Below the pieces are notes generated by a model. The model made no database searches. It saw only the letters and a program-made list of their open reading frames with translations, and was not told the DNA's origin. A stretch of 64,000 nt of DNA from a bacterium (GTDB taxonomy: Bacteria; Patescibacteriota; Minisyncoccia; Phycocordibacterales; UBA12088): assembly GCA_003252295.1 (NCBI GenBank), contig QKEV01000003.1, positions 64,701 through 128,700 of the forward strand, given 5' to 3'. Position 1 is the first letter of the stretch. The number at the start of each line of letters is the position of its first letter. A program made the translations under genes and the position numbers. Positions 1 through 51,286 of this stretch are shown piece after piece.

Positions 1-320
1 ATAAAGCGATGCAGGCACGAGCAATGATACGTCGTGATGTTGCAGAGGCGTACAAGCAGGTAGATGCGATAGCTACACCAACAACCACCTCTCCAGCGTT
101 CAAGATCGGTGAAAAAGTGAATGATCCGCTTGCACTCTATCTTGAGGATATATTCACCGTATCAGCAAACATAATTGGAACACCAGCCATATCGGTACCA
201 TTTGGTACAGCAACACGTGATGGAAAAGAATTACCGCTCGGCTTTCAACTCATGGCGCCAGAGCTTGGTGAGGCGACACTCTTTGCACTTGGTAACGTGC
301 TTACAAGCAGTACAAACTAG
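1..320 (+). CDS. gatA: Glu-tRNA(Gln) amidotransferase subunit A, C-terminal fragment (5' truncated by window edge)
   Basis: Translation ...FKIGEKVNDPLALYLEDIFTVSANIIGTPAISVPFG... matches the conserved C-terminus of the GatA amidase family; the ORF is open to the window start. Confidence 0.7.
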   Translation, partial: KAMQARAMIRRDVAEAYKQVDAIATPTTTSPAFKIGEKVNDPLALYLEDIFTVSANIIGTPAISVPFGTATRDGKELPLGFQLMAPELGEATLFALGNVLTSSTN

Positions 321-346: not shown

Positions 347-1672
347 ATGTCAGAAAGTTCGACAAGTAACACCGTGTTTGAGGACATGATGCTTGTTCTC
401 TTTGGAATATTCCTTGTCGGGCAGATGTTTCAACGTGGCCCTGAGATACTACAGGAACGGTTCGGTATCTCTTTTGATGGGGAGAATCAGTACCTTGTTG
501 CAGGAGTGGCACTGAGTGCTGATACACCTCTTGGCACTGCGGTGAATGCACCGAATGGTGCGGTATTCTATAGTTCACCTGGAGAGGGAGATCCATCGGG
601 TACTTTTGCACCAGGAACATCGCTTACTATAGTTGGGGGTCCAGAGACAGTAAATGGAGAACGTTGGTGGCAGGTTGAAGATACGGCAACTGGAGAACAG
701 GGATGGGTTCGTGAGTCGAGTCTTGTTCGTGAAGGGGTTGGAGGTATTGGTCCAGCTACGAAAGTGGGAGCAAAAGCAAAAATACTTCTAGATACTACAG
801 CGTGGACAGAAGCGGGGGGTGCGGTAAAAGCAGCGTTACTGAAAAAAGGTGATGTAGGTGAACTAACTATAGGACCGAAAAAAAAGAACGAGACTCGTTG
901 GTGGTTCTTTGATAAAGATGGTTCTAGTGGTGATGGGTGGGTACCAGAGGCAGTACTTGTGCTTGCGAGTGATACGGGATGGGAGGAAGGTAGTAAGGTG
1001 CGTGGCAATGAAACGGTGAACTTGTTTGCACAAGCAGGAGGAGATGAGGTTACCGGTTTGTTGAGTAAAGGAGAAAAGGCGACGGTGCTTGGTGGACCTG
1101 TTGAAGTTGGAGGAGGGTTATGGTGGCTCATAAAGACACAAGAGGGTGAACAAGGTTGGGTAGAGGAGAGCGCACTTGAAGATGCAGGCATAACATCAAT
1201 TTTTAAAAAGATAGTCGTAGGTATTATGATTATTGGTGGTTTAGCGACACTCATATTGCTTGGAGGTATCGTGTATGTTGCCATTCGTACAAATCAAATA
1301 CGAGCACGAGAAGCTCAGAGGATACGATCTGCAATACCTGAAAAGATGGAAGAAGTAAAAAATGAGCGTTGGGCGAACATAGAGCGACAGGTGGCGTCAG
1401 AGAATCCAAATGATTGGCGACAAGGTATTTTGGAGGCCGATATTATGCTTGATGAGGTGGTGACAAGGATGGGCTACTATGGAGACACGCTTGGAGAAAA
1501 GTTAAAGCAGGTTGCACGGGGTGACATAGAGTACCTTGATGCACTCTGGGAAGCACATAAGGTTCGTAATCAGATAGCACATGAGGGGAGTGATTTTATA
1601 CTTACACAAAGAGAGGCTAAGCGAGTGGTTGGGTTGTACGGTACAGCTTTCAAGGAGCTCAGGGTTATTTAA
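347..1672 (+). CDS. Membrane-anchored protein: N-terminal TM, three bacterial SH3-like repeats (W..GWV motifs), TM helix, C-terminal cytoplasmic HEPN-like (Rx4H) alpha-helical domain
   Basis: Three repeated ~70-aa units with GERWWQV...GEQGWVRESSL / TRWWFF...GDGWVPEAVL / GGLWWLIK...GEQGWVEESAL. A hydrophobic helix IVVGIMIIGGLATLILLGGIVYVAI is followed by a positive-inside cytoplasmic tail. The C-terminal motif ...HKVRNQIAHEG fits HEPN Rx4-6H. Confidence 0.55.
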   Translation: MSESSTSNTVFEDMMLVLFGIFLVGQMFQRGPEILQERFGISFDGENQYLVAGVALSADTPLGTAVNAPNGAVFYSSPGEGDPSGTFAPGTSLTIVGGPETVNGERWWQVEDTATGEQGWVRESSLVREGVGGIGPATKVGAKAKILLDTTAWTEAGGAVKAALLKKGDVGELTIGPKKKNETRWWFFDKDGSSGDGWVPEAVLVLASDTGWEEGSKVRGNETVNLFAQAGGDEVTGLLSKGEKATVLGGPVEVGGGLWWLIKTQEGEQGWVEESALEDAGITSIFKKIVVGIMIIGGLATLILLGGIVYVAIRTNQIRAREAQRIRSAIPEKMEEVKNERWANIERQVASENPNDWRQGILEADIMLDEVVTRMGYYGDTLGEKLKQVARGDIEYLDALWEAHKVRNQIAHEGSDFILTQREAKRVVGLYGTAFKELRVI

Positions 1673-1700: not shown

Positions 1701-1747
1701 AAACAGAAAAGCAACCACTACTGGTTGCTTTTCTCTAGTTGTTGCGG
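1701..1747. repeat. 47-bp perfect direct repeat, copy 1 (contains terminator-like hairpin gcaacca-ctac-tggttgc followed by a T-run)
   Basis: aaacagaaaagcaaccactactggttgcttttctctagttgttgcgg is identical at 1701-1747 and 1931-1977. This copy lies just downstream of the stop codon at 1672. Confidence 0.9.
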
Positions 1748-1930
1748 TGAGGAGCAATGCTCCGCAAGATCTTGCCAGATATTTCTTGAAGGATGAAAAG
1801 AAATATCGACAAGGTGTACAGGTCTCGTAGAGACCCAGAATGTGACCAAATTTTCTTGAGTGAAGCGATTAGAAAATTGAAATGCCCTTGTGGTAAAATT
1901 CTGGCCCACACATACTGTGATTTATGCCAC

Positions 1931-1977
1931 AAACAGAAAAGCAACCACTACTGGTTGCTTTTCTCTAGTTGTTGCGG
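1931..1977. repeat. 47-bp perfect direct repeat, copy 2
   Basis: Identical to 1701-1747. The two copies bracket a 183-bp unique segment (1748-1930). Confidence 0.9.
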
Positions 1978-2136
1978 GGGCCAGAATTGCACTGGCGCCT
2001 GAAGGTTATGAGCCTTCCGAGGTACTACTCCTCCACCCCGCAATGGGTTACGTAGACTAACCTAACATATCTACACGATGCCTGCAAATGTATATAACTC
2101 GTAATACCTGTCTGTAATGAACGTCTGGTACAATAT

Positions 2137-3366
2137 ATGTCTATGAATATACGTATTACCTTGATGCAAAAAACTACACGCAGTGTTATGTCTGTAGTAC
2201 TTATTACGCTACTCTTTGCACCACTAACAACAGTACAAGCTGCTCTCTTGCTTGGGAAAAGTGATAGGGAAAAAGTTGAAGAACATAAGGCGAGTGCTGA
2301 TGTGGAGGGTGAATGGCTCCTCGCTTACTATGTGGGATACCACTATGAGTACCTTAAACCAAAAGATATTGACTATACCCTAATGACACACATTGTTGTT
2401 GGTGGTATTGGTGTAAACAGTGATGGGACACTTGATGAACATTGGCATATGACTGATAGTGATGAGGGAAGGGAAATGGCACTTGATGTAGGAAGGTATG
2501 CTGACAGGGAGGGTGTGAAGAAACTCATTTGGCTAGGAGGTCCAAACGAAGAAGATAAATTCTACAGTGCGACGTCAGATGAATACAGAGAGAATTTTGT
2601 TGAAAACATCATCAAACTCTTGGATGAACTTGATTACGATGGTGTTGATATTGACTGGGAGCCGATACGTACGAAAGACGAGTTGGGAATATTGAAACTT
2701 GTACGTGACTTGCGAGAAAAAGATCCAGATATGCTCATTACTGTTCCTGTGAACTGGGTACCAAGTAGTATTCTCTACACCAAGGATTTGAGTATTTATG
2801 ACGACTTAGCACGATACGTTGATAAGATGTTCATCATGAGTTACTCAATGGCTGGTCCATGGTCAGGGTGGAAGAGTTGGTACGGTGCGGCACTTACGGG
2901 AGATACGGTAGCTACCCCAAGTTCAATTAAAACCTCAGTATATGCGTACGAGCGTGCTGGTGTACCGAGCGATCAACTTGGCGTAGGTATTGGGACATAT
3001 GCAACTTGTTGGGAATATCCAGTTAAAAATCCAAAACAGACACTTCTAAGTACTTACTATTCAAGCAGACTACATGCCATGAGTATGCGCACACTCATGA
3101 GTGACTATTATAGTAGTAAAAATGAACGATGGGACTCTCTTGCAAAGGTTCCTTACCTCACCTTCAAGAGTGGACAAGGAGACTTTAGTTGTGGGTTTGT
3201 CTCCTATGAAAACAAAGAGTCTGTACAAGAGAAAGTCGAGTATGTGCTTCGTAAAAAATTGGGAGGGGTGATGGTGTGGAATATTGGTACTGGATACTAC
3301 CCTGAAAACAGTAAATCAAAACGCAACGAGCTTTTGAAGGAAATATGGGAGACACTTACTGATTAG
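2137..3366 (+). CDS. Glycoside hydrolase family 18 (chitinase-like), secreted or membrane-anchored
   Basis: N-terminal hydrophobic signal/anchor (VVLITLLFAPLTTVQA). GH18 catalytic motif DGVDIDWEP (DxxDxDWE) is present. Confidence 0.8.
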   Translation: MSMNIRITLMQKTTRSVMSVVLITLLFAPLTTVQAALLLGKSDREKVEEHKASADVEGEWLLAYYVGYHYEYLKPKDIDYTLMTHIVVGGIGVNSDGTLDEHWHMTDSDEGREMALDVGRYADREGVKKLIWLGGPNEEDKFYSATSDEYRENFVENIIKLLDELDYDGVDIDWEPIRTKDELGILKLVRDLREKDPDMLITVPVNWVPSSILYTKDLSIYDDLARYVDKMFIMSYSMAGPWSGWKSWYGAALTGDTVATPSSIKTSVYAYERAGVPSDQLGVGIGTYATCWEYPVKNPKQTLLSTYYSSRLHAMSMRTLMSDYYSSKNERWDSLAKVPYLTFKSGQGDFSCGFVSYENKESVQEKVEYVLRKKLGGVMVWNIGTGYYPENSKSKRNELLKEIWETLTD

Positions 3367-3460
3367 TTGTTAACAGAGTAAACAGGTAGAGGTGACCGTA
3401 TGTGAGTATGCTCTGTTAGAATACTAGTACGTTTTGTTCTTTATACACTAGCTATTTTTT

Positions 3461-3637
3461 ATGAAAACAAAAAATAAACTGATTCTTTTTATTATCATAA
3501 TGCTTGCAGGTATCTACTCCTCTGCAATACTATTGGGTGCACTAAAACTCACTCCTGACTCTGGAGTCATAGGTGTTGTTGGTGTGGGGTACCTCATGTT
3601 TCAGGCGTCTTACCTCCTTTTCAAGAAGTGGTCTTAG
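3461..3637 (+). CDS. Small hypothetical membrane protein (~58 aa; below the ORF-track size cutoff)
   Basis: ATG at 3461, TAG at 3635-3637. Translation MKTKNKLILFIIIMLAGIYSSAILLGALKLTPDSGVIGVVGVGYLMFQASYLLFKKWS has two hydrophobic helices and is followed by an intrinsic terminator. Confidence 0.3.
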   Translation: MKTKNKLILFIIIMLAGIYSSAILLGALKLTPDSGVIGVVGVGYLMFQASYLLFKKWS

Positions 3638-3665
3638 ATGAAAGTATTCAGTCTTGCTAAAGTAA

Positions 3666-3694
3666 GAACATCCGTCATCGCGGATGTTCTTTTT
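3666..3694 (+). terminator. Rho-independent terminator (stem gaacatccg / cggatgttc plus T-run)
   Basis: A perfect 9-bp stem with a 6-nt loop is followed by tttttgtg. It abuts the 3' end of the minus-strand tRNA. Confidence 0.6.
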
Positions 3695-3695
3695 G

Positions 3696-3769
3696 TGCCG
3701 GGGGAGAGAATTGAACTCTCGACCTTAGCTTTATGAGTGCTACGCTCTAACCAACTGAGCTACCCCGGC
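3696..3769 (-). tRNA. tRNA-Met (anticodon CAU; elongator-type G1-C72, could alternatively be Ile2/lysidine)
   Basis: The reverse complement folds as a cloverleaf: GCCGGGG acceptor, GCTC/GAGC D-stem, U33-CAU-A37 anticodon loop, GGTCG/CGACC-like T-arm with TTCAATT loop. No CCA is encoded. Confidence 0.8.
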
Positions 3770-3863
3770 ATTTGTAAGGGAGAGAGTAGCATGATTGTTA
3801 CAACTGTTCAACGTGATATTTATGGTAACTGACATATTTACTAAGAGTGATATACTACTATGT

Positions 3864-4049
3864 ATGGCACGAAGAAAGCTCGAAGAACGCAATATGCGAA
3901 CACTTTTTAAACTCGCTGGAGGAAAGAGTTTCGCGGTTACGATTCCTATCGATGTGGTCCGTAGCTGGGGTTGGCAAAACAATCAAAAGCTTAGACTCAA
4001 CATTGATGAGCAACACAAAAGGGTCATAGTAGAAGAATGGAAAGACTAA
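3864..4049 (+). CDS. AbrB/MazE/SpoVT-type swapped-hairpin DNA-binding protein (antitoxin-like), orphan
   Basis: MRTLFKLAGGKSFAVTIPIDVVRSWGWQNNQKLRLNIDEQHKRVIVEEWK resembles the AbrB-fold (KxGNSxxVTIPKExxExLGL...). No adjacent toxin ORF is evident. Confidence 0.5.
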   Translation: MARRKLEERNMRTLFKLAGGKSFAVTIPIDVVRSWGWQNNQKLRLNIDEQHKRVIVEEWKD

Positions 4050-4187
4050 CGTGATCGCAATAAAAAACCTATACCATGTACAAATGGGTGTGTATAAGTG
4101 CGTGTTAACTAATGAGTTAACACCTTGTTTTTTTGTTGAGAATCCTGTACTCTATGTTCACTCTGAAGTTTTTCAGAGGTTGCGTAT

Positions 4188-4264
4188 GCGGTCGTAGCTC
4201 AACTGGTTAGAGCACCCGCCTGTCACGCGGGAGGTTGAGGGTTCAAGTCCCTTCGACCGCGCAA
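4188..4264 (+). tRNA. tRNA-Asp (anticodon GUC)
   Basis: GCGGTCG acceptor, GCTC/GAGC D-arm, anticodon stem CCCGC/GCGGG with loop CUGUCAC, T-arm GAGGG-TTCAAGT-CCCTT, discriminator G. Confidence 0.85.
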
Positions 4265-19137: not shown

Positions 19138-19210
19138 GCCGTTGTAGCTCAGTTGGTAGAGCGCATCCATGGTAAGGATGAGGTCCCCAGTTCAATCCTG
19201 GGCAACGGCT
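19138..19210 (+). tRNA. tRNA-Thr (anticodon GGU)
   Basis: GCCGTTG acceptor; anticodon stem CATCC/GGATG with loop AUGGUAA; T-arm with TTCAATC loop. Confidence 0.85.
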
Positions 19211-19264
19211 CACGTAGAAATTCCAACATTAGTGTGTGCTCAATGTTGGTGTTTTTATTAATAT

Positions 19265-19337
19265 GCCGAAGTAGCTCAGTTGGTAGAGCATTGCATTCGT
19301 AACGCAAAGGTCGGGAGTTCAAACCTCCCCTTCGGCT
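19265..19337 (+). tRNA. tRNA-Thr (anticodon CGU)
   Basis: GCCGAAG acceptor; anticodon stem TTGCA/TGCAA with loop UUCGUAA; T-arm GGGAG-TTCAAAC-CTCCC. Confidence 0.85.
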
Positions 19338-19338
19338 C

Positions 19339-24876: not shown

Positions 24877-25881
24877 ATGACATCAAAGTCGATAATCCGC
24901 CGTATGGCGGTGTTTGTTTTTATAGCGGGGACCGCATTCTTTGCCGGTATCTTGTTTTCTGAGGATTCACTGCATTTTGAACCTGCAGTTGCAGATGCGC
25001 AGGAAACTGATGTGGTTGCTGATACTACAACAAATGAAGAACCTTTAACTGCTAGCACTACTGAGCAGAGTGCGACAAGTACAGGAGAGAGTTCTATTCT
25101 TGATTCAACACTTATTGAGGTTTTGAGTACACCAAAACAGGATCTCACAAAACCAGAACTTGATACTGAAAAGGATGAGATACAAACACTCCTTGAGAAA
25201 CGCCAGGTTGAAAAACCAGGATTGTTTACCTTTATTGCCTACTGGGTACAGAAGGCAATAGCGCTTGGTATTCCTGCAAATACTATTGTACTCATTTTCC
25301 TTATACCAGTTATCGCAACACTCATTACTTTCGTGCGAGTGGTCATTGGTTTGCCTGCACTTGAGATGATGGTACCTATCGTACTCTCATTTGCTTTCGT
25401 TGCGGTTGGAATTACTGCAGGACTCATTATTTTGAGTGCAGTCATTTTGGCCTCCTTTGTTTCCCGTACACTCCTGCGCAAAGTGCCTATCATGTACTTC
25501 CCGAAACGTTCTCTCTCACATCTCTTTCTTGCCTTCTTTGTGTTTGGAGCACTTACGATTGCTATCATTCTTGATTTTCAGTCAATTCGTGAACTTTCTA
25601 TCTTCCCAGTACTCATTCTTACCCTCCTGGGTGACTCTATTGTGTCTGTACAGTTGAGGAAGACGGTGCGAGAGACAATTGTTATCACTGCGGTAACACT
25701 CGGTCTTGCGCTCATTGGTTACCTGCTTGCAACAAGTGTTCTCGTGCGTGATCTGGTGATACTTTGGCCTGAACTGATACTTATAACAGTACCTATTAAT
25801 TTCCTTCTTGGACGTTACTTTGGTCTACGACTTTCTGAGGTATTCCGTTTTAGAAGTCTCGAAGCGTATGCCCGTAAGTAA
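24877..25881 (+). CDS. Polytopic (about 7-TM) membrane protein, first gene of the ATP-grasp/protease module
   Basis: N-terminal anchor, acidic/Thr-Ser-rich linker, then about 7 hydrophobic helices. Its stop overlaps the next gene's start by 14 nt. Confidence 0.55.
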   Translation: MTSKSIIRRMAVFVFIAGTAFFAGILFSEDSLHFEPAVADAQETDVVADTTTNEEPLTASTTEQSATSTGESSILDSTLIEVLSTPKQDLTKPELDTEKDEIQTLLEKRQVEKPGLFTFIAYWVQKAIALGIPANTIVLIFLIPVIATLITFVRVVIGLPALEMMVPIVLSFAFVAVGITAGLIILSAVILASFVSRTLLRKVPIMYFPKRSLSHLFLAFFVFGALTIAIILDFQSIRELSIFPVLILTLLGDSIVSVQLRKTVRETIVITAVTLGLALIGYLLATSVLVRDLVILWPELILITVPINFLLGRYFGLRLSEVFRFRSLEAYARK

Positions 25882-27223
25882 ACAAGCACTCGGGATGAAT
25901 GCCCGAAATTATCTCTACATACGCCCGAACAATAAACCTCGGGCAAAGGAACGTGCTGACAGTAAGTTGCTCACGAAAGAGCATTTGGTGAAGAAGAAGA
26001 TACCTACCCCTGAGCTCAAAGAGGTGTTTCGAACACATAGGGATGTTCGTGACTATGACTGGACCAAGCTCAAGGGGAGCTTCGTGTTGAAGCCTGCTCG
26101 TGGATACGGTGGTGGCGGTATACTCGTTGTACGAAACTGGAATGGAGAACAGGGAAGACGACTGGGGAGTAAGCCAATTACAAAAGAAGAGCTTGAAGCA
26201 GAGATATACAGTATTTTGGACGGTGCGTATTCGCTCAACAATCTTCCTGACATTGCTCTAATAGAGAAACGAGTAATTGTGTCTAGCACTATGCGTAAGT
26301 TGAGTAAAAAGGGTGTACCAGATATACGGGTCATTGTGTACAACAAGGTTCCTGTTATGGCAATGCTTCGATTACCAACTAAATACTCGAATGGATGTGC
26401 GAACTTGCACCAAGGAGCCATGGGTGTTGGTATCGACCTGCGCACGGGAATAACCACGAAAGGAGTCCTGTTTGGTTTTGATGAGAAACACATACCAGGT
26501 ACCAAAACAAAAGTGCGAGGTATTAAAATTCCTAAATGGAGCAAGGTGTTGAAGTATGCTGTACAGGCACAGAAGGCGTCACGTCTCGGGTATGCAGGTA
26601 TAGACATTGTATTTGATGAAAAACTTGGCCCATTGGTACTGGAGGTGAATGCTCGTCCGGGACTTCAGATACAGTTAGCGAATGGTGATTCACTTCGTAC
26701 CCGCCTTGAGCGGGTTGAGGGAATGCATATTCCTTCTATTGAGTACGGTATTGATCTCGGCAAACGTTTGTTTGCGGAAAAGTCATTGAGTGATATAAAC
26801 GTGAAGAGTAACGTCCTTAAGGTTCGTGAGCCGGTTGTCATCTATGGTCCAAAAGGGAAGAAGAAGATTACAGCCAAGGTAGACACTGGTGCCTACAGTA
26901 CTTCAATAGATACGGCACTTGTAGAAGAGTTGGGGTTGAAGAAACATCCACGACAGAAGCTTGTTCGTACTGGGTTTGGACCAGAAGAGGTGCGTGATAG
27001 GGTGCATGTTGTATTTCGTCTTCATGGTATGGATATTGAAACCGATGCTTCAATCACCGATCGCTCACACATGCGTTATCCTATGATTATTGGTCGTCGT
27101 AACCTAAAAGGTTTCTTGGTTGATCCCAAGTACACACCAACTGATGAAGAGAAACAAAAACGTTTAGAAAGAAAAAAAATAAAAGAATTAGAAGTTGGTA
27201 AAGAAGAGACAAGTGATGAGTAA
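25868..27223 (+). CDS. Fusion protein: RimK-related ATP-grasp ligase (alpha-L-glutamate ligase-like) N-terminal domain plus retropepsin-like aspartic protease (DTGA) C-terminal domain
   Basis: ATP-grasp features (LKPARGYGGGGILVV; GVGIDLRTG; EVNARPGLQIQ) and a C-terminal ITAKVDTGAYSTSID...MIIGRRNL clan-AA protease signature. Confidence 0.65.
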   Translation: MPVSKQALGMNARNYLYIRPNNKPRAKERADSKLLTKEHLVKKKIPTPELKEVFRTHRDVRDYDWTKLKGSFVLKPARGYGGGGILVVRNWNGEQGRRLGSKPITKEELEAEIYSILDGAYSLNNLPDIALIEKRVIVSSTMRKLSKKGVPDIRVIVYNKVPVMAMLRLPTKYSNGCANLHQGAMGVGIDLRTGITTKGVLFGFDEKHIPGTKTKVRGIKIPKWSKVLKYAVQAQKASRLGYAGIDIVFDEKLGPLVLEVNARPGLQIQLANGDSLRTRLERVEGMHIPSIEYGIDLGKRLFAEKSLSDINVKSNVLKVREPVVIYGPKGKKKITAKVDTGAYSTSIDTALVEELGLKKHPRQKLVRTGFGPEEVRDRVHVVFRLHGMDIETDASITDRSHMRYPMIIGRRNLKGFLVDPKYTPTDEEKQKRLERKKIKELEVGKEETSDE

Positions 27224-28112: not shown

Positions 28113-29450
28113 ATGTCTGAAAAATTTCACCAATCCTTTGAAGAAACAAGTGTTGCGCAACAAGAGGTTTTAGATGCCGATTTGTATACTGCTTTTGAAA
28201 AACTGTTTTTTGAGGATTATGAGTACCTTGAAGGAGACAAAAGGGAAAGAGAAAATCAGAAAAAAAGTTTTTTTGAGAATGAGATCGAGAATCCTGTTCT
28301 TGATTACCCCTTACTAGAGAACTTTGATTTTGAAACCAGAGAGAGTGAACTAGTAGCACTTAAAGAAACTGCACTGCAACATAGCGACCCGGTAGTTACT
28401 CAGGTGTACAGGTGGAGGATAAATGAACAAATTGCTCAGTTAAGGATGTTAAGGGCAGCAAAAGAGGGGAACGACAGGCGTTTTGGAAGGTACTCAAGGT
28501 TTATATATGGGACACCTTCTGAAGAAATATTTCAGTATGATCTGAGTAAGGTAAGAGGGGTTGTTGAGGTTGCGCAAAGATCGGGTGATGATGAGAGAAT
28601 AAAGGCGTCAGAATGGCTACTGGAACATGTAGATCTCAATAAGGTTGATACTGCAACAATCAGTGATGGTCTTCTCAAAAAAGAAAAAGATACCACTGAG
28701 AAACTGAATGCAGAGCAAATTCTTGAACTGTTTGAACAAGCAATTGCAACATTGCAACTTACTGACTGGAAGGTTGTTACTGATGAGAACAGAAGAACGG
28801 TGAGTGCAAGCCAAGAGCAAAAAACAGTATATCTGCCAAAAGATATCTCTCGAACAAAACAAAAAGTCGAGTCACTCATTGCGCACGAGTTAGGTACCCA
28901 TGCACAAAGAAGAGAACATGGAGAGAGGAGTAAACTGAGACTCCTTGGTTTGGGTCTAGATAGATACGTGAAAGGTGAGGAAGGGGTTGCAACATATGAG
29001 CAGCATAAGATTGAGGGAGCAGATGAATATGCGGGTTTCTTGGGACATCTTGCTGGGTCACTTGCACATGGCGTTGATGGGACAAAAAGAAATTTCAGGG
29101 ATGTGTTTGAAATATTGTGTCAGTATAATATCGCACGAATAAAAACCTCAACAGGAGAAGATCGGGTAAAAAAGGCAAAAGATGCTAGTTGGAATACATG
29201 CGTAAGAGCTTTCAGAGGTACCACTTGCACTTCTCCAGGTAATGCGTTTACGAAGGATATTGTGTATCGAGAAGGGAATATTGGTGTGTACGACCTCATT
29301 AATGCAAACAGTAATGAGGTGCACCGTTTTATGGTTGGCAAGTATGACCCGACAAATGATAGACATGTGTGGGTACTTGACCAGCTTGGTATTACAGAAG
29401 AAGATATTGAGCGTCTAGAGAAGGGTGAAGAAGTAGCTGACGAAACATAA
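28113..29450 (+). CDS. DUF1704-family (MATCAP-like) zinc metallopeptidase with atypical HExxxH motif
   Basis: IAHELGTHAQRREHGE (H-E-x-x-x-H) and the conserved downstream segment ...GEEGVATYEQHKIEGA.... Adjacent to the RimK-like ligases, as in the described conserved neighbourhoods. Confidence 0.6.
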   Translation: MSEKFHQSFEETSVAQQEVLDADLYTAFEKLFFEDYEYLEGDKRERENQKKSFFENEIENPVLDYPLLENFDFETRESELVALKETALQHSDPVVTQVYRWRINEQIAQLRMLRAAKEGNDRRFGRYSRFIYGTPSEEIFQYDLSKVRGVVEVAQRSGDDERIKASEWLLEHVDLNKVDTATISDGLLKKEKDTTEKLNAEQILELFEQAIATLQLTDWKVVTDENRRTVSASQEQKTVYLPKDISRTKQKVESLIAHELGTHAQRREHGERSKLRLLGLGLDRYVKGEEGVATYEQHKIEGADEYAGFLGHLAGSLAHGVDGTKRNFRDVFEILCQYNIARIKTSTGEDRVKKAKDASWNTCVRAFRGTTCTSPGNAFTKDIVYREGNIGVYDLINANSNEVHRFMVGKYDPTNDRHVWVLDQLGITEEDIERLEKGEEVADET

Positions 29451-40185: not shown

Positions 40186-41775
40186 ATGAAAATAAGCAAT
40201 AAGCAGGCACGTGTACTTGGAGCAGGGGCAGTAACCCTTGCGCTTTTTAGTATACTCTACGTATTTATAGGTAATAAAGATGAGGAGGTGAGAGTCACAA
40301 AGGTGCAGGATGAGGTGTATCTAGAAAAGGCAGATACCATACCGGTACGTGTTTCAGGGGTACTCACTGCCGCTGACACAATGGTGGTGTACGCGGAAAC
40401 TTCGGGAAACGTGAACCATATTGCTCGTGAAGGTGATACGGTTGGGGTGGGTACACTCATTGCACAGCTCGATGCACCGGTAACACAAGCCCAGCTGTCA
40501 CTTTCAAATGCACAGAGTGCACTCACGAGCTCACAGCAGCAGCTGGCACTGGAGACCGCCAACATGCAACGTATTGCACAAGACAGTGCTTATGAGAGTG
40601 CGACGAGTATTGCGACACTGCGCAGTGTCGGTAATGAGTCACAGGTACGTATCACTCGTACGCAGCTCCTAGCAGGTATTGAGCAGTCGCTCCTCACGAG
40701 TGTACGAGCACTCGACTACATAGACACCAACAGGCGCTTGTTTACGAGTGATGGTATGGATGAGTACAAGCTCGCTGTTGAAGCACTCTATGGTAGTAAC
40801 CCAAACTTCTTACGTTCAGGAATGCTTTCTGCAAGTACCGGTGATGATAGTGAACTCTTAGAACGACTCCATACACTGCAGGGAAATGATGAAGCAGATG
40901 TTGCCGCGGTACTTCTCTTGGCAACCGATACAAACGTCGTCTTGAACCGCATACACAACGCCCTCATGACCGGTGAAGAAGATGCACTCGATGAGCGGGA
41001 GACACAGGTGGGTGGTGATGTGTACGAATCATACATGGCGATGCGCAGTGCGATAGTAAATGCAAAGACAAACCTTTCTTCATACAAACTTGCGCTTCAG
41101 GCAGCACAAGATGCAGCACAGCAAGATAGTGTCGTCCAGGTGACGAATACCAAGGTTACTGACGCGAGTGCAGCACTGGCACGGAGTGCCGCAGAGCTGC
41201 AAGCTTCCATAGATGAGCAGGCGCAGAGTGTTGCACGGTCAAACTCAGAGGTGCTCCGCGCACAGTTGAGTCTCGCGTACACACAAGCACCGTTTGCTGG
41301 TGTGGTGAGTAAGGTGTATGTAGAAGACGGTGAGTATGTGACACCAGGGACACCGCTTTTAGAGCTTCGGGGAACGGGAGTGTATGAGGTGGCAGTGACT
41401 GTGCCGGCTGAGTTTGCCTCATACGTTGCTAAGGGTCAGCCGTTTACCATAGACGGTGCCACTATTGGGTACGTTGATCGATTTGCACCGGTCTTACAGA
41501 ACGGTGCACTTGAAGTATTCCTTGTTGTTGGTGGTGACTCATACAGGAGTGGCGAGGTGCTTGCCGGAACACTCGAACTTGCAAGTACGAATGGTGATGT
41601 GTACAGCATTGGGCGAGAGTACGTACACTTTAGCAGTACCGGTCCGTACGTTCGCTTTACTGACAATGAGTCAACATCGGTTGCTGTCGTGTATGACAGG
41701 GGAGATACACTCTACGTAAAACCAGTACAGGTACGTGAGACAGCACTCCTCTCAGCAGTTGGTGGAACACTCTAA
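40186..41775 (+). CDS. RND-type efflux periplasmic adaptor (membrane fusion protein)
   Basis: N-terminal TM, long coiled-coils, and C-terminal PFAGVVSKVYVEDGEYVTPGTPLLELRG... beta-barrel motifs. Immediately upstream of the RND pump. Confidence 0.7.
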   Translation: MKISNKQARVLGAGAVTLALFSILYVFIGNKDEEVRVTKVQDEVYLEKADTIPVRVSGVLTAADTMVVYAETSGNVNHIAREGDTVGVGTLIAQLDAPVTQAQLSLSNAQSALTSSQQQLALETANMQRIAQDSAYESATSIATLRSVGNESQVRITRTQLLAGIEQSLLTSVRALDYIDTNRRLFTSDGMDEYKLAVEALYGSNPNFLRSGMLSASTGDDSELLERLHTLQGNDEADVAAVLLLATDTNVVLNRIHNALMTGEEDALDERETQVGGDVYESYMAMRSAIVNAKTNLSSYKLALQAAQDAAQQDSVVQVTNTKVTDASAALARSAAELQASIDEQAQSVARSNSEVLRAQLSLAYTQAPFAGVVSKVYVEDGEYVTPGTPLLELRGTGVYEVAVTVPAEFASYVAKGQPFTIDGATIGYVDRFAPVLQNGALEVFLVVGGDSYRSGEVLAGTLELASTNGDVYSIGREYVHFSSTGPYVRFTDNESTSVAVVYDRGDTLYVKPVQVRETALLSAVGGTL

Positions 41776-41787
41776 CAGACAGGCATC

Positions 41788-44700
41788 ATGGAAGAAGATA
41801 AACATATAAATATAGTTGGGCGCGTGAGTCACTTCTTTACGACACATAGACCGCTCTCTGTACTCTTACTCATTACCTCACTCGTTTTCGGGATAGTGTC
41901 ATTCTACCTTACGCCGAAGCAGTACAATCCTGAGATAAAACGTCCTGCCTTTGCTATATCACTCGACTACAGTGGTGCAACGATACAGGAGTCACTCGAT
42001 AGGGTGGTGTATGAGATGGTGGAGAAGGTGGGTACCGTGCCTGGTGTTGATGATATCTATACGCAAGTCACTGATGGATCGCACATTGTCACAACAGTCA
42101 TCTTTGAAGTGGGGTATGACACCACGAAGGCGAAGGTGGACCTCACGACACAGCTCAACCAGCACAGCTACCTTGCACGTGGCTTCATATCCGTACCAAG
42201 CATCATCGAGATAAACCCGGAGACGGTCCCCGTGCTTCAGGTGGTCTTTGGGTCTCCTACACTCACGCTCACTGAACTACGTGAACGTGTTGTTACGCTC
42301 TCACATGCGCTCACGCAAATAGAGAACGTCAGTGAGGTGTCTGTGACCGGTGCGTACAGAGAGGTGCTCAAGGTGGAGGTAGATCCGGCAAAGCTCTTAG
42401 CGTACAACCTCACTGTTGAGGAGGTTGCACAGGTGCTCACGAGTAGTCAAAACAGGACAGTGCAGAACGGTGTGGTGAACGACGAGTACCAAATAGAGAT
42501 AGTCTACGACGCTCGCGCTAATTCTCCCGAAGAAGTGGGGTCTCGTGAAGTGAGGAGTGGTGTCCTCGTGCGTGACGTTGCTCATGTATACGTGGGAAGT
42601 AGTAACGGACGTTCGTACGTACTGCATACGAGCAAAGAGAGTGGTACACAGAGTGAGGTGGTCATGCTCTCTGTTGCAAAAGTGGAGGGTTCGAGTGCTC
42701 CTGTTGTGACGAGAGCTGTGCAGGACGAGATAGAACTACTACTCGAGCAAGATGCGTACGCCGGTGTGGAATATCGAGTAGTTGGTGATGATGGTAAAAC
42801 AGCATCAAATGCCATTAACGGTCTCACACAAAACCTCATTACCTCTATCGTGATTGTGGCATTGGTACTCTTCCTCTTTCTCTCGGTACGAGCCGCACTC
42901 GTGGTCTTGGTTGCTATACCGGTCACACTACTCATTGTCTTTGGACTCGGCTACCTCTTTGGAGAAACGATTAACCGTATCACCCTCTTTGCACTCATCC
43001 TCTCTCTCGGTCTCCTCGTAGACTCTGCGATTGTGGTAGTTGAAAACATATACAGTCATTTGAAATATGCTCACGGTAGCGCATCTCCAAAGAATCGAGA
43101 AAAGGTAATAGCACATGCGGTGCATGAGATAGGGGTCGGTCTCTTACTCTCAACGGTCACCTCGGTTATCGTGTTTCTCCCGATGCGCTACATCACCGGC
43201 ATGATGGGACCCTACATGGGACCGATAGCGTTCTTCGTTCCAGCTGCACTCATCATTTCTCTCTTGGTAGCAATCGTAGTGACGCCGTTCATTGCCTCAC
43301 ACCTCTTGAAGGGGGAGGAGAAAGAGACTCGTTTGAGTCGTGCTGTGAATAGGTACGTAGAAAAGGTGACCAGTTTTTACACTCGAGTCCTCACAGCTAT
43401 AGTACACAGTAGGAGCAACCAAAAGAAGCTGCTCCTTGGGGCACTCATGCTCTTTGGTGTATCACTCCTCTTGCCGCTCTCTGGGTTAGTGCATTTCCAG
43501 ATGCTTCCACGTGCTGACCAAGATCAGTTTTACGTGTACTACGATGGTCCTACCGGTACGTCAGTAGAACGTACGAAGGAGACGACTACTCGTTGCGTAC
43601 TTTTCAGAGTATGAAGCAGTGGAGAGTATACAGAGCTTTGTTGCTACAGCACCAATACTTGATTTCAATGGACTCTTTAAGGGTGCGCAAAATAGGAGCG
43701 CTGCAAACCAGTCGACACTCCGTGTGAACATAACACCGAGCGATGAACGGAGCTTGAGTTCAAGTGATGTGGTGAGTGACCTGCGTCACCTGCTCAAAGC
43801 AACGTACCCTGAGATTGCAGAAGACGTGCAGTTTATTGAGGAGCCACCTGGTCCACCGGTTCGTGCAACACTCGTTGCAAAGGTACTCAATGAGGATGAG
43901 GATGTACGTAACCACTTTGCCAATGCACTTGCAACGTATATGGATACACGCGAAGGAGTAGAAGATGTTCACGTGCAGCGGGATGATGCGACGGGACGCG
44001 TAGTGTATACACTCAACCATGACGCACTTCGTGAGTATGGGGTAACGCAGAGTGCTGTAGAGAATATGCTCACCCTCATGCAGAGCGGTATTGAGGTGTC
44101 AGAGTTCTCCTCAGCACGGTCTAATGAGTACAGTCCTGTTATTTTGTCACTCGGGTATGCTGACCGTTCAGCACCATCGAGTATCGATACACTGTACGTG
44201 AGGAGTGGTACGGGAACACTCATTCCACTTTCGTCGGTAGTAGACATTAGCTACGAGGAGCGTCCTTCTGTTGTGATGCTCGAGGATGGTCTCCTTACGA
44301 CCTACGTGACCGCTGAGGTGGAGAACAGGTCTATTGTGTACGTTGTCATAGAACTCATGCGAGGACTCATTACTGGCGATGTTCCTGGATACAAGGTTAC
44401 TGATTGGGGGCTGTTCTCACTCACCCTTACGGATGAGGACGGGGAACAGGTGCAGCTTGTCTGGGGTGGTGAATGGGAGATGACGCTCGAGAACTTCCGT
44501 GATCTCGGTATAGCTATGGGTGTTGCTCTCATGCTCGTCTATGCGGTCTTAGTGGCACAGTACAATCGCTTTGCGACACCTGCTTTCATACTGGTCACGG
44601 TACCACTCGGGCTTGTGGGCATACTGTGGGGTTTTCTGGTGCTCGATACGGTGTTCGGTGTTTACCTCACTGCTACGGCACTCATTGGCTTTATAGCGCT

Positions 44701-44983
44701 CATAGGACTCGTGGTGAACAATGCCATTATCTACCTTGAGTACGTTGAACAGGCACAGAACGAAGGCGCTGCTTTTAGAGATGCGCTTGTTGAGGCAGGG
44801 CGGGCACGGTTGCGTCCAATCGTACTCACTTCGTTCACTACTATTCTCGGAAGCTTAACGATAGCAGGTGACCCGGTATGGTCGGGGCTCGCATGGGCGA
44901 TCGTGTTCGGTCTTTCACTTTCGACAGTACTTACGCTCGTTGTGTATCCGACTTTGCTCGTCTTCTTCACTAATAAAGATTAA
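41788..44983 (+). pseudogene. RND family efflux transporter (AcrB/CusA-like) split by a 1-nt frameshift near 43585-43590 (ORFs 41788-43614 and 43619-44983)
   Basis: The N-ORF covers TM1, periplasmic loop 1, TM2-7 and the start of loop 2 (...LPRADQDQFYVYYDGPTGTSVERTKETT). The C-ORF continues loop 2 in another frame (...AYFSEYEAVESIQSFVA...) through TM8-12. The combined length of ~1060 aa is that of a single RND protein. Confidence 0.65.
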
Positions 44984-49382: not shown

Positions 49383-49474
49383 GTATATGTGGACATTTGC
49401 TGTGGTAGATGTAGAGTGGAACTAGGAGAAGTTCGTTGAGAAGAATTGTTATAAACAAGCACGAGGAGGATTGC

Positions 49475-51286
49475 ATGAGTCAGACCAAACCTAACAGAGG
49501 TACAGTGCGGAAACGTAAACAAAACGGTGAAAATAACGTTACCAATTTCAAAGGTACAAAAGGAGAATCACCTGTCGCCTCAACTGGAATTGAAGTCGCA
49601 GAACGTGTTGCACAAAACAAGAAAGCAAAACTGGATCAGTTTCCAGCAAAAGAATTTACCGCTGATACAAATGTTCCTGTGTCATTTGCAGGTGCACTCT
49701 TGAGTTTTGTTGAACATGATGTGCGTATGCCATGGCATGTGCTTTTAGAGCTCGACAAGTTTAAAGTAGGACTTAAAACAGAGAACATGCTTACACGCAT
49801 GGCAATCAATCTCATGTTGAGACTTGTTGAAGGTGTACGTATGGATGTTATCCATGAGGGTATACCACTCATCGAACCTGGAACAAAAGCACCAAAGAAC
49901 AGAAAGGTTGGTAAGCTGTTTTTCAATGTACCAACACAGGAGGAATTTTTGCAGGGTGAATTTGATGGATCTGATCATCCAGATCTTATTATCTTGAGAG
50001 AGTTTATAAAAAATAGAAATACTCAGCTCAAGAAAAAGTCAAACGGGAGTAAAGAGAAACCTCGAAAGAAAAATGATTTCATCTTTATTTCACGAGACAA
50101 GATGGCACGACTATTCGCTCTCCTACTTGGGATACCAGCGCAGGATTTTCGAAGAGTGTCACTCGATGAAAAGAAAGTGCTCACGGACAGATTGCACTAC
50201 TTTCCAAACAGTTTTTGGAACAACTGCATGGAAGAAATTCCTGATAGGAGTGCCACCGGAAATGCTCAAAAGAGTATTCGTGTTTTTAAGAACAGAGCGT
50301 TTCGCGGTATCAATGTGAATGAGTTCATCGTACTGGCTGGTGATGCTGGTTCTCCTGAGCGACACTTTCGAGTAATTAAAAAAGTGTCACCGGAGGTTGT
50401 ACATTTGCGTGAGCTTAAGGATTACAGGAAGAAAAGTAACGCACTTAGGGGTGTTGTTGCTTGGAATGAGGCGCAGAACAGGGGTATTGACGTGCTCTTT
50501 GATCCTGATGTGCCTGTGGTGTTGCTCTATGGTGACGTGGGTACCTCAAAAACGTTTCTTGCGGAATTAGCTGGCTACTATCAAATGATGCAATTTAACA
50601 GGTATCGGAGTATTGTTGCTGCTCGTGTTCCAGTTCCTGTTGGCAAAAAAGAACTTGCAGAGGTTCCTGGTGGTGTTGAGGAGAAAATGCGTCCGTGGCT
50701 TCAAGGTTTCTATGACAATATGACAATACTGGCGCACTACTTTACGCGTGACATGTTTCCAGAGGCGACATCAAAGAAACCGATGCCGTTTGAGGAGCTG
50801 ATACAAAGTCTCACCGGTAACACCAATAAACAAAAAGGAAAAAAGGGAGGCGCTAAAAACGGCAGCGAAAACAAGGATGTGAGTATTGACTATGATCTGT
50901 GTTTTGGTGCGATACAGGGGTGGATGAAAGGTAGGTCTGAAGTGGTACACCCATCAACCATTCGGAGTGCTTCGTTCTTTGACCAGTATGTAATCTTGGA
51001 TGAAGCGCAAGATGCACGACGTGATGTTTTGAAAGCTTTCCTTACTCGATTTGGTAAAGGTTTTGAGGAAGTACTGGATAGAGATGGAAAGGTGTTGCAT
51101 GAAGCAACTCGACCAAAACTTGTCATAACAGGTAGTGTGCAACAGATCGATAATCACATTGCTGATGGTGATTCAGCTTTCGCACGTCTCATTGCTGACT
51201 CTGTTGGTCAGGAAAGTGTTGCGCAGGTTATGCTTACCGAATGTACTCGAGATCCAGTTGTAAAGTTCTTCAATAAAATTTTATAA
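49475..51286 (+). CDS. PhoH-family ATPase with N-terminal PIN-like domain (YlaK-like)
   Basis: PIN-like acidic motif ADTNVPVSF...; P-loop LLYGDVGTSKTFLAELAG; Walker B/DEAQ VILDEAQDA. The product is long because of inserts. Confidence 0.6.
   Translation: MSQTKPNRGTVRKRKQNGENNVTNFKGTKGESPVASTGIEVAERVAQNKKAKLDQFPAKEFTADTNVPVSFAGALLSFVEHDVRMPWHVLLELDKFKVGLKTENMLTRMAINLMLRLVEGVRMDVIHEGIPLIEPGTKAPKNRKVGKLFFNVPTQEEFLQGEFDGSDHPDLIILREFIKNRNTQLKKKSNGSKEKPRKKNDFIFISRDKMARLFALLLGIPAQDFRRVSLDEKKVLTDRLHYFPNSFWNNCMEEIPDRSATGNAQKSIRVFKNRAFRGINVNEFIVLAGDAGSPERHFRVIKKVSPEVVHLRELKDYRKKSNALRGVVAWNEAQNRGIDVLFDPDVPVVLLYGDVGTSKTFLAELAGYYQMMQFNRYRSIVAARVPVPVGKKELAEVPGGVEEKMRPWLQGFYDNMTILAHYFTRDMFPEATSKKPMPFEELIQSLTGNTNKQKGKKGGAKNGSENKDVSIDYDLCFGAIQGWMKGRSEVVHPSTIRSASFFDQYVILDEAQDARRDVLKAFLTRFGKGFEEVLDRDGKVLHEATRPKLVITGSVQQIDNHIADGDSAFARLIADSVGQESVAQVMLTECTRDPVVKFFNKIL

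Follow-up and report, generated by a model that had tools for sequence, protein, structure and literature searches.

The question that this locus raises is what a membrane protein does for its cell when it appears to carry an envelope-binding module on one side of the membrane and a nuclease-like domain on the other. The protein is the product of gene X, at 347..1672 on the forward strand of the window, by which we mean the whole stretch of 64,000 nucleotides (nt) analyzed here, taken from contig QKEV01000003.1 of a bacterium of the Patescibacteriota. An earlier note on this DNA, made from the letters alone, had described three SH3b repeats outside the cell, a transmembrane (TM) helix and a cytoplasmic helical domain ending in an Rx4H motif, the signature of HEPN RNases, and had suggested a sensor-effector, such as an RNase triggered by envelope stress or by phage in the manner of abortive-infection and toxin systems. 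The answer reached here is a different one. Gene X encodes a core, vertically inherited membrane protein of Parcubacteria-type Patescibacteria. Its C-terminal domain likely belongs to the HEPN superfamily, and we see roughly even chances that the protein is a core membrane-tethered, probably catalytic HEPN-like RNase whose outer loop grew into SH3b repeats in one clade.

Read from its N terminus, the protein of 441 amino acids (aa), which has an ATG start and a TAA stop in the list of open reading frames (ORFs) of the window, runs through TM1, three SH3b-like repeats and TM2 into a helical domain of about 106 aa that holds R407-N-x3-H412. Its parts are the following, where A1 and A2 are family alignments of 77 and 51 sequences.

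347..1672, forward strand: gene X, a 441-aa two-pass membrane protein from the ORF list; 35 orthologue clusters of about 440 aa have the same architecture.

386..430, forward strand: TM1, residues 14-28, a moderately hydrophobic predicted N-terminal anchor behind a short cytoplasmic tail (Kyte-Doolittle peak 1.79).

512..745, forward strand: SH3b-like repeat 1, residues 56-133, predicted extracytoplasmic, sharing the repeat signature and giving by itself only weak SH3_1 and SH3_4 matches.

746..979, forward strand: SH3b-like repeat 2, residues 134-211, the most diverged, sharing the repeat signature and giving no Pfam match by itself.

980..1198, forward strand: SH3b repeat 3, residues 212-284, a bona fide SH3_3 (PF08239).

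1211..1285, forward strand: TM2, residues 289-313, a strong anchoring helix present family-wide (Kyte-Doolittle 2.48) and one long helix in the AlphaFold2 (AF2) model.

1286..1354, forward strand: basic juxtamembrane linker, residues 314-336, with 5 lysines plus arginines (K+R) in the 19-residue stretch 312-330, just past TM2.

1352..1669, forward strand: HEPN-like four-helix domain, residues 336-441, from the AF2 model and weak HEPN_Swt1 matches; about 2,961 cluster representatives match the domain profile.

1439..1441, forward strand: Asp365, in helix 2, an invariant column in A1 and A2 and a candidate for the upstream acidic residue of HEPN domains.

1547..1582, forward strand: the signature W401-E-A-H404-K-V-R407-N408-Q-I-A-H412, with RNxxxH near the end of helix 3; its W, E, H, R, N and H are invariant in the 77 and 51 aligned sequences.

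Most of the architecture described earlier survives this accounting. The three SH3b repeats are borne out by internal homology, two of the copies having diverged, and the order of SH3b outside, TM helix, and helical domain inside is upheld by the repeats, by hydropathy and by the K+R bias of the family. Two details change. The motif is real (R407...H412), but it does not end the domain, which goes on into a helix at 421-437; and the weaker hydrophobic segment at residues 14-28, visible in hydropathy, had been left out. This TM1 segment is conserved among orthologues, several of which have K/R-rich N-tails, and in TM2 the pattern S-x3-S...G-I-x-Y-x-x-I-R is conserved in the A1 consensus, with the tyrosine kept in at least 90% of sequences. 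The exact gene X protein is already in public collections, where it has no name, and no Pfam or NCBIfam model covers its family.

That family is large, and what it has kept is the first line of evidence. In a word-index search, the query of TM2 and the C-terminal domain brought up 785 proteins, nearly all of them “hypothetical proteins” of 186-240 aa, from Kaiserbacteria, Zambryskibacteria, Paceibacterota and other Patescibacteria. With the soluble domain as a profile, 2,961 representatives of 50%-identity clusters matched at E <= 1e-3, of which 751 at E <= 1e-30; the best 150 of the 2,961 are all close family members, and among the matches listed there are no sequences bridging to established HEPN families. 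The domain is encoded in at least 593 species-representative genomes of Patescibacteria. A typical member has about 190-240 aa and no SH3b, and most members have no ectodomain at all. Nine residues are invariant in A1 and A2 (W357, D365, L368, W401, E402, H404, R407, N408 and H412), and the pattern W..H..RN...H is kept in 340 of 340 retrieved relatives, the residue after the arginine always being asparagine. Loss of Rx4H among homologues had been named beforehand as one of two findings that would refute the HEPN idea, and the motif proved invariant across all 340. It is this conservation across the family that gives the motif its significance; a single Rx4H, for which the chance expectation in the gene X protein is 0.09, proves little alone. 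The protein has only two histidines, H404 and H412, and both lie within the WEAHKVRNQIAH signature.

Is the domain, then, HEPN? The published survey of the superfamily (Anantharaman et al. 2013, PMC3710099) describes the HEPN fold as a four-helix up-down bundle, frequently with an insert between helices 2 and 3. Its Rx4-6H, conserved across a family, closes helix 3 or opens the loop to helix 4; a polar residue (mostly N, D or H) comes right after the arginine, and helix 2 supplies a conserved acidic residue near the motif. Structure prediction, proposed earlier as a check, gave a confident four-helix model whose layout agrees with this description: the predicted local distance difference test score (pLDDT) is 92-93 for the AF2 models overall and 92.1 for residues 330-441, with a predicted TM-score (pTM) of 0.84. 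The core consists of helices a1 (336-350), a2 (354-374), a3 (397-416) and a4 (421-437), and the top Foldseek matches are four-helix bundles as well. Between helices 2 and 3 lies a 22-residue connector, 375-396, holding a short insert helix at 382-388. R407-x4-H412 falls in helix 3, with H412 four residues short of the helix end, and the polar residue after the arginine is N408 in every one of the 340 sequences. The invariant D365 lies in helix 2 by A1, A2 and the AF2 model, and is a candidate for the acidic residue, placed by sequence and secondary structure only.

Sequence profiles point the same way, at a distance. A Pfam search of the C-terminal domain, also proposed earlier, brings up HEPN families again and again, all of them below the curated cut-off. 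The commonest match is HEPN_Swt1 (PF18731), found in 43 of 77 members, nearly full-length and with a best E of 0.0011; for the family consensus it stands second, at E = 0.0048, to CTD11. Weak matches that also recur among the 77 are to HEPN_RiboL-PSP (13 members), HEPN_Cthe2314 (5), DUF4145 (3), Hypoth_Ymh (2) and pEK499_p136 (2), and the weak matches in PADLOC are mostly to HEPN-bearing models (CARF-HEPN, RT-HEPN, Cas13a, AbiA and Csx1). Scattered matches of unknown function were all that PHROGs returned. The HEPN reading of the earlier note therefore holds in part: RNxxxH is invariant, the helix layout fits and HEPN_Swt1 is the commonest match, but no curated threshold is reached and no fold match is significant. 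In sequence and in the AF2 model, the domain carries the marks expected of a HEPN domain that is competent for catalysis.

The side of the membrane on which this domain lies can be judged from the charge around the two helices. Over the 15 residues flanking the anchoring TM helix, the family mean of K+R is 3.8 after the helix versus 1.1 before it; around TM1, in the 169 sequences that have this upstream helix, it is 2.4 before versus 1.3 after, and the N-tails of longer family members are rich in lysine. Since positive residues crowd after TM2, the positive-inside rule places the C terminus in the cytoplasm, and the bias as a whole supports an N-in/C-in arrangement, with the SH3b-bearing loop predicted outside and the conserved domain predicted inside. 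The inverse topology, with SH3b in the cytoplasm and the C-terminal domain external, was considered and is ruled against by the K/R distribution over 321 family members.

The ectodomain is found in only part of the family. Its three tandem repeats of about 75 aa align on an invariant G...GP...WW...GWV.E..L, and for SH3_3 (PF08239) the whole protein scores 32.2 bits and repeat 3, taken singly, 31.8, both above the cut-off of 27. When the ectodomain by itself was the query, the search returned 35 clusters of orthologues of about 440 aa plus two family members with one repeat, all of which keep RNxxxH; no different output domain on the triple-SH3b ectodomain occurs among these matches. A true sensor-effector might be recognized by an ectodomain shared with other signaling outputs or shown to bind a ligand, and the search found only orthologues with the same C-terminal domain. 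Within the SH3b clade, mean identity is 55% for the ectodomain and 65% for the cytoplasmic domain. SH3-type insertion into the external loop is recurrent, since other long members, of 300-700 aa, also carry one to six SH3-fold repeats (SH3_3 or Tudor-like matches). By sequence comparison, the triple-SH3b ectodomain is thus a lineage-specific elaboration confined to about 35 orthologue clusters, and it looks like an accessory tether or modulator rather than the defining sensor of the family.

The remaining evidence comes from the surroundings of gene X, for which three features of the window are needed.

1..320, forward strand: the 3′ end of gatA, encoding the Glu/Asp-tRNA amidotransferase A subunit (Pfam Amidase, E = 1.2e-18 on window 9-317, profile positions 353-444 of 445); the gene before X in its transcription unit.

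1705..1734, forward strand: a hairpin with a 13-bp stem, 33 nt past the gene X stop, from the terminator-like scan and the sequence; likely the terminator of the unit in this genome.

1971..2042, reverse strand: tRNA-Met(CAT), 72 nt, from ARAGORN; the first of the tRNA cluster that follows X in most relatives, inverted in the window.

Only 26 nt separate the gatA stop from gene X, with no promoter-like site between, and ligA-gatC-gatA lies directly upstream on the same strand both in the window's own contig and in every relative checked. Synteny was sampled in 80 species-genome loci from the relatives most similar to the query, 78 of which yielded the motif-bearing ORF. gatA is directly upstream in 77 of the 78, typically 5-120 nt away, and the single exception starts at a contig edge. 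Downstream, the 72-nt tRNA-Met(CAT) lies within 300 nt of X in 45 of the 71 loci with enough sequence (median distance, 70 nt; 40 on the same strand), and the order seen most often is tRNA-Met, tRNA-Met, tRNA-Asp, frequently with two tRNA-Thr behind. The window has the same tRNAs, with Met at 1971 and 3695, Asp at 4188, and Thr at 19138 and 19265. No gatB was found among its large ORFs.

Several observations concern this tRNA region in its own right. Compared with the relatives (loci L001-L089), the tRNA set of the window (1971-4262 and 19138-19338) is rearranged, with the two tRNA-Met genes on the minus strand and separated by an inserted GH18 glycosyl hydrolase gene (2137..3366), and with the tRNA-Thr pair some 15 kb off. 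An exact direct repeat of about 47 nt occurs at 1700-1747 and 1930-1977, about 185 nt apart, and holds the 13-bp-stem hairpin AGAAAAGCAACC-ACTA-GGTTGCTTTTCT; its first copy is 33 nt past the gene X stop and its second overlaps the 3′ end of the minus-strand tRNA-Met. A bidirectional terminator that was duplicated is one possible reading of the repeat; another is an att-like relic of a rearrangement that inverted the tRNA. The ORF at 1890..2060 on the forward strand is an antisense translation of tRNA-Met (peptide ...APEGYEPSEVLLLHPA...). In locus L018 (5313-5432), the orthologue's frame runs into similar tRNA sequence because the tRNA abuts the gene, and the result is a spurious C-terminal extension (474 aa).

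These surroundings bear directly on whether gene X is a weapon. One could suppose that the SH3b repeats sense cell-wall damage or phage adsorption and switch on a toxic HEPN RNase, as an abortive-infection style suicide system or toxin. An RNxxxH HEPN-like domain is indeed a hallmark of many Abi and toxin-antitoxin effectors (PMC3710099), the weak PADLOC matches are to HEPN defense proteins, and a layout of ectodomain, TM helix and effector is compatible with a sensor. However, none of those PADLOC matches is significant, and most family members have no ectodomain with which to sense anything. Defense genes are usually patchy in distribution and found in variable islands, whereas gene X occurs in those hundreds of species genomes (at least 593) and, at the loci sampled, in one fixed arrangement, ligA-gatC-gatA-X-tRNA. 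By tblastn, none of 72,556 plasmids or 50,697 phage genomes gave a credible match to the family consensus, and a scan of the 2.9 million viral contigs of IMG/VR with A2 gave no relative. No adjacent MNT, antitoxin, restriction-modification or other defense partner was seen at the window or at the relatives' loci checked; the survey of homologues for conserved partners that had been proposed returned gatA and tRNA genes as the neighbors and nothing resembling an antitoxin. Fixed synteny, ubiquity, the missing mobile-element matches and the missing partner together point to a vertically inherited core gene rather than a conflict gene. The abortive-infection, toxin and phage-triggered framing accordingly lacks support, and we regard a triggered toxin as very improbable.

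What, then, would a core protein of this kind do? The mechanism that we favor, at the even chances given above, runs as follows. The protein is predicted to insert through its two TM helices, N-in/C-in, with the four-helix domain of about 106 aa on the cytoplasmic side. Judging by HEPN enzymes in general, the gene X domain probably acts as a dimer joining two RNxxxH motifs. It would be a metal-independent endoribonuclease leaving 2′,3′-cyclic phosphate ends, as do the KEN domains of Ire1 and RNase L, PrrC and RloC, and would act on RNA at the inner membrane face; metal-independent RNA cleavage would also be in line with what was predicted for TM-linked bacterial HEPN domains (PMC3710099). In the ancestral form of about 190-240 aa, the extracytoplasmic part would have been a short loop or stub. 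In the clade of the window, with its roughly 35 orthologue clusters, that loop would have expanded to three SH3b repeats, while other clades would have inserted one to six SH3-fold repeats independently. More speculatively, the most plausible task of the SH3b repeats is to anchor the protein on peptidoglycan or some other envelope polymer, of its own cell or of a host, and such a tether may position the protein or modulate dimerization of the cytoplasmic domain in the style of the Ire1 luminal domain.

As to substrate, gene X appears to be the last cistron of the gatC-gatA unit, usually no more than about 70 nt before tRNA-Met, tRNA-Met and tRNA-Asp genes, and this position makes a housekeeping task linked to translation the most likely one, whether the processing of RNA or tRNA, its turnover or its quality control. 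A fuller version, tentative and less likely than not, is a hitherto unrecognized housekeeping membrane-tethered HEPN endoribonuclease, co-transcribed with gatCA and the tRNA-Met/tRNA-Met/tRNA-Asp cluster, that processes or surveys tRNA or mRNA at the membrane, possibly in the role of RNase Y or RNase E, its activity or location being coupled to the cell wall or host surface in the SH3b clades.

A number of points weigh against the catalytic HEPN interpretation and its housekeeping extension. The HEPN_Swt1 gathering threshold of 27.5 bits is well above the scores of the full protein (12.4), the C-terminal piece (15.2) and the family consensus (17.6), and the typical second HEPN motif, E-x3-[KR], is not evident in the domain. 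Searches of PDB sequences with the protein and two family profiles brought up no HEPN protein. Foldseek E-values are all 0.3 or higher, whether against the PDB, with TM-containing and soluble-domain models, or against BFVD, and HEPN chains have no advantage there over bundles of the cytochrome b562 type. Repeats 1 and 2 have diverged so far that Pfam does not recognize them alone. The synteny is that of 80 loci from the relatives nearest the query, and the gatCA/tRNA arrangement could merely be frozen gene order in small genomes, without a functional link. The HEPN chains that do appear among the non-significant Foldseek matches (2q00, 6m6u, 1wty, 8xeh and 9bj7) have query-normalized TM-scores (TMq) up to 0.53. 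As far as the model goes, the fold search shows compatibility with HEPN and is not evidence for it; HEPN and generic four-helix bundles are not separable by it. (Those sequence matches that the PDB did give were TM-driven, as with butyrophilin, or due to chance, and were rejected.)

These points leave room for two other accounts. In the first, the domain, HEPN-like or simply a generic four-helix fold, would have no catalytic activity and would bind RNA, tRNA, a nucleotide or a protein partner, for example to tether or regulate the GatCAB transamidosome or another translation factor at the membrane. The tight, near-universal linkage to gatCA and tRNA genes would suit it, as would the sub-threshold similarity to HEPN RNases, and several non-catalytic HEPN families acting as binding domains are on record in the HEPN survey. 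But inactive HEPN domains have typically lost Rx4-6H (PMC3710099), whereas here none of the 340 sequences departs from R, N and H, and D365, E402 and H404 are invariant too, a pattern typical of an active site; we consider a pure binding role unlikely. The second account dispenses with HEPN altogether: a four-helix bundle anchored in the membrane would bind a metal or cofactor and sense redox state, metal or a small molecule. One face of helix 3 presents H404, N408 and H412 with the spacing i, i+4 and i+8, E402 and D365 could be further ligands, and two invariant histidines and two invariant carboxylates thereby cluster on helices 2 and 3. In Foldseek, moreover, bundles of the cytochrome b562, hemerythrin-like and NiSOD types reach the scores of HEPN chains. 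Against this, no Pfam match to hemerythrin, cytochrome b562 or other metal-bundle families was found, the recurring matches being HEPN; helices 1 and 4 have, in the A2 consensus, no conserved ligand residues of the kind that di-iron and heme bundles need; and the invariant Arg-Asn pair suits HEPN catalysis better than metal ligation. A metal bundle is, on this balance, improbable, and the membrane-tethered HEPN-like RNase stays the best explanation.

Other features of the window and of the family records deserve mention. An AcrB-type resistance-nodulation-division (RND) transporter is split over two adjacent forward-strand ORFs, 41788..43614 and 43619..44983 (Pfam ACR_tran positions 2-579 and 596-1020), preceded by a HlyD-like adaptor gene at 40186..41775; the split may be either natural or an assembly frameshift or stop codon. 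At 49436..51286, also on the forward strand, a 616-aa fusion of PIN_4 and a PhoH-like ATPase is a further predicted enzyme of RNA metabolism. Two forward-strand genes, 25808..27223 and 28113..29450, encode an ATP-grasp protein of the sugar-transfer-associated type with a C-terminal aspartyl-protease-like domain and, nearby, a tyrosine carboxypeptidase-like protein of the MATCAP family; that these two occur together is unusual and suggests that peptides are ligated and trimmed. Every 2-kb bin of the window has a positive GC skew, the cumulative curve climbs monotonically and the forward strand carries almost all long ORFs, which places the whole window on one leading-strand replichore; the skew also yields long spurious antisense ORFs, such as 568..1284 on the reverse strand inside gene X. 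Among the records, one orthologue of about 440 aa (P0267) is labeled “SH3 domain-containing protein [Crocinitomicaceae bacterium]”, and many of the species-genome loci are titled “uncultured Candidatus Saccharibacteria” while having the same synteny as Kaiserbacteria, Taylorbacteria, Campbellbacteria and Zambryskibacteria records; both labels look like mis-binning or generic labeling. Loci L030 and L031, from one metagenome-assembled genome (JALYQT01), are two contigs that each carry gatA and then a 220-aa family member, probably strain-level redundancy in the bin and not a true paralogue.

If the preferred account is right, its consequences reach beyond this genome. To our knowledge, what is known of HEPN domains in prokaryotes comes almost wholly from toxins, abortive-infection systems and CRISPR effectors. 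The gene X family has an intact HEPN-type active-site signature and yet behaves as a membrane-anchored core gene across hundreds of species. Were it active as an RNase, part of the little-known set of RNA-processing enzymes in the ultra-small, host-dependent Patescibacteria would be filled in, and the family would be a bacterial counterpart of Ire1/C6orf70 RNA cleavage at a membrane; and were its role a housekeeping one, then HEPN, in prokaryotes mainly a nuclease of conflict, would have become an essential core enzyme of a major bacterial radiation. From a more utilitarian standpoint, defining a family model would annotate thousands of “hypothetical proteins”, and the SH3b clade offers a natural experiment on grafting an envelope-binding module onto such an enzyme.

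How much of this has a precedent? Coupling an outside module to an intracellular HEPN domain had been called unusual in the earlier note, and as a general statement this is too strong, since membrane-tethered bacterial HEPN sensors were already predicted in 2013 (Anantharaman et al. 2013, PMC3710099), one group of them, of the Abi2/Swt1 clade, being joined to a TM helix. The SH3b ectodomain and the housekeeping context are the part that keeps its novelty: the literature searched held no description of the Patescibacteria family, of the gatCA-tRNA synteny or of an SH3b-HEPN fusion. With the Abi2/Swt1 membrane group, the gene X family shares an intact RNxxxH HEPN-type domain, predicted cytoplasmic, C-terminal to a conserved TM helix, and HEPN_Swt1 is also its commonest Pfam match; for that group the external segment was proposed as a sensor of surface stimuli (PMC3710099). 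The differences are that the Abi2/Swt1 group, exemplified in Salmonella, has an all-alpha external domain, whereas the gene X family is specific to Patescibacteria, has a short loop or SH3b outside, and is a core gene beside gatCA and tRNAs.

The eukaryotic parallel is Ire1, in which a sensor domain across the membrane, a TM helix and a cytosolic HEPN RNase follow a layout like that of gene X. The Ire1 RNase is activated by oligomerization. In Ire1, unlike X, a kinase domain separates the TM helix from the RNase, and the KEN domain is circularly permuted. No sequence relationship of X to Ire1, RNase L or C6orf70 was detected; RNase L (a KEN-domain HEPN RNase) and C6orf70/ERMARD are eukaryotic proteins grouped with Ire1, and the likeness to the proposed role of X lies in action on RNA at a membrane (PMC3710099).

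The soluble HEPN toxins and effectors (HepT-MntA, AbiV, AbiD/F, RnlA, Cas13 and Csm6/Csx1) share with X the Rx4-6H motif, the polar residue after the arginine and the four-helix core, and HEPN defense chains and models are the ones that surface as weak matches to the X domain. They are patchy, often mobile, and paired with antitoxins or sensors, whereas X is membrane-anchored, at a fixed locus and without a partner gene. In its proposed role, X is closer to RNase Y and RNase E, membrane-associated housekeeping endoribonucleases that are conserved core genes, metal-dependent, and built on HD/KH and S1/DNase I-like domains; the analogy is functional only, folds and chemistry being unrelated. Finally, the SH3b domains (PF08239) of peptidoglycan hydrolases are the nearest known relatives of the outer part: repeat 3 of X passes the family threshold, and the repeats are tandem and predicted to be extracytoplasmic. 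In X, however, they are not part of a hydrolase, and with repeats 1 and 2 highly diverged they are set between the two TM helices of a protein whose predicted effector faces the cytoplasm.

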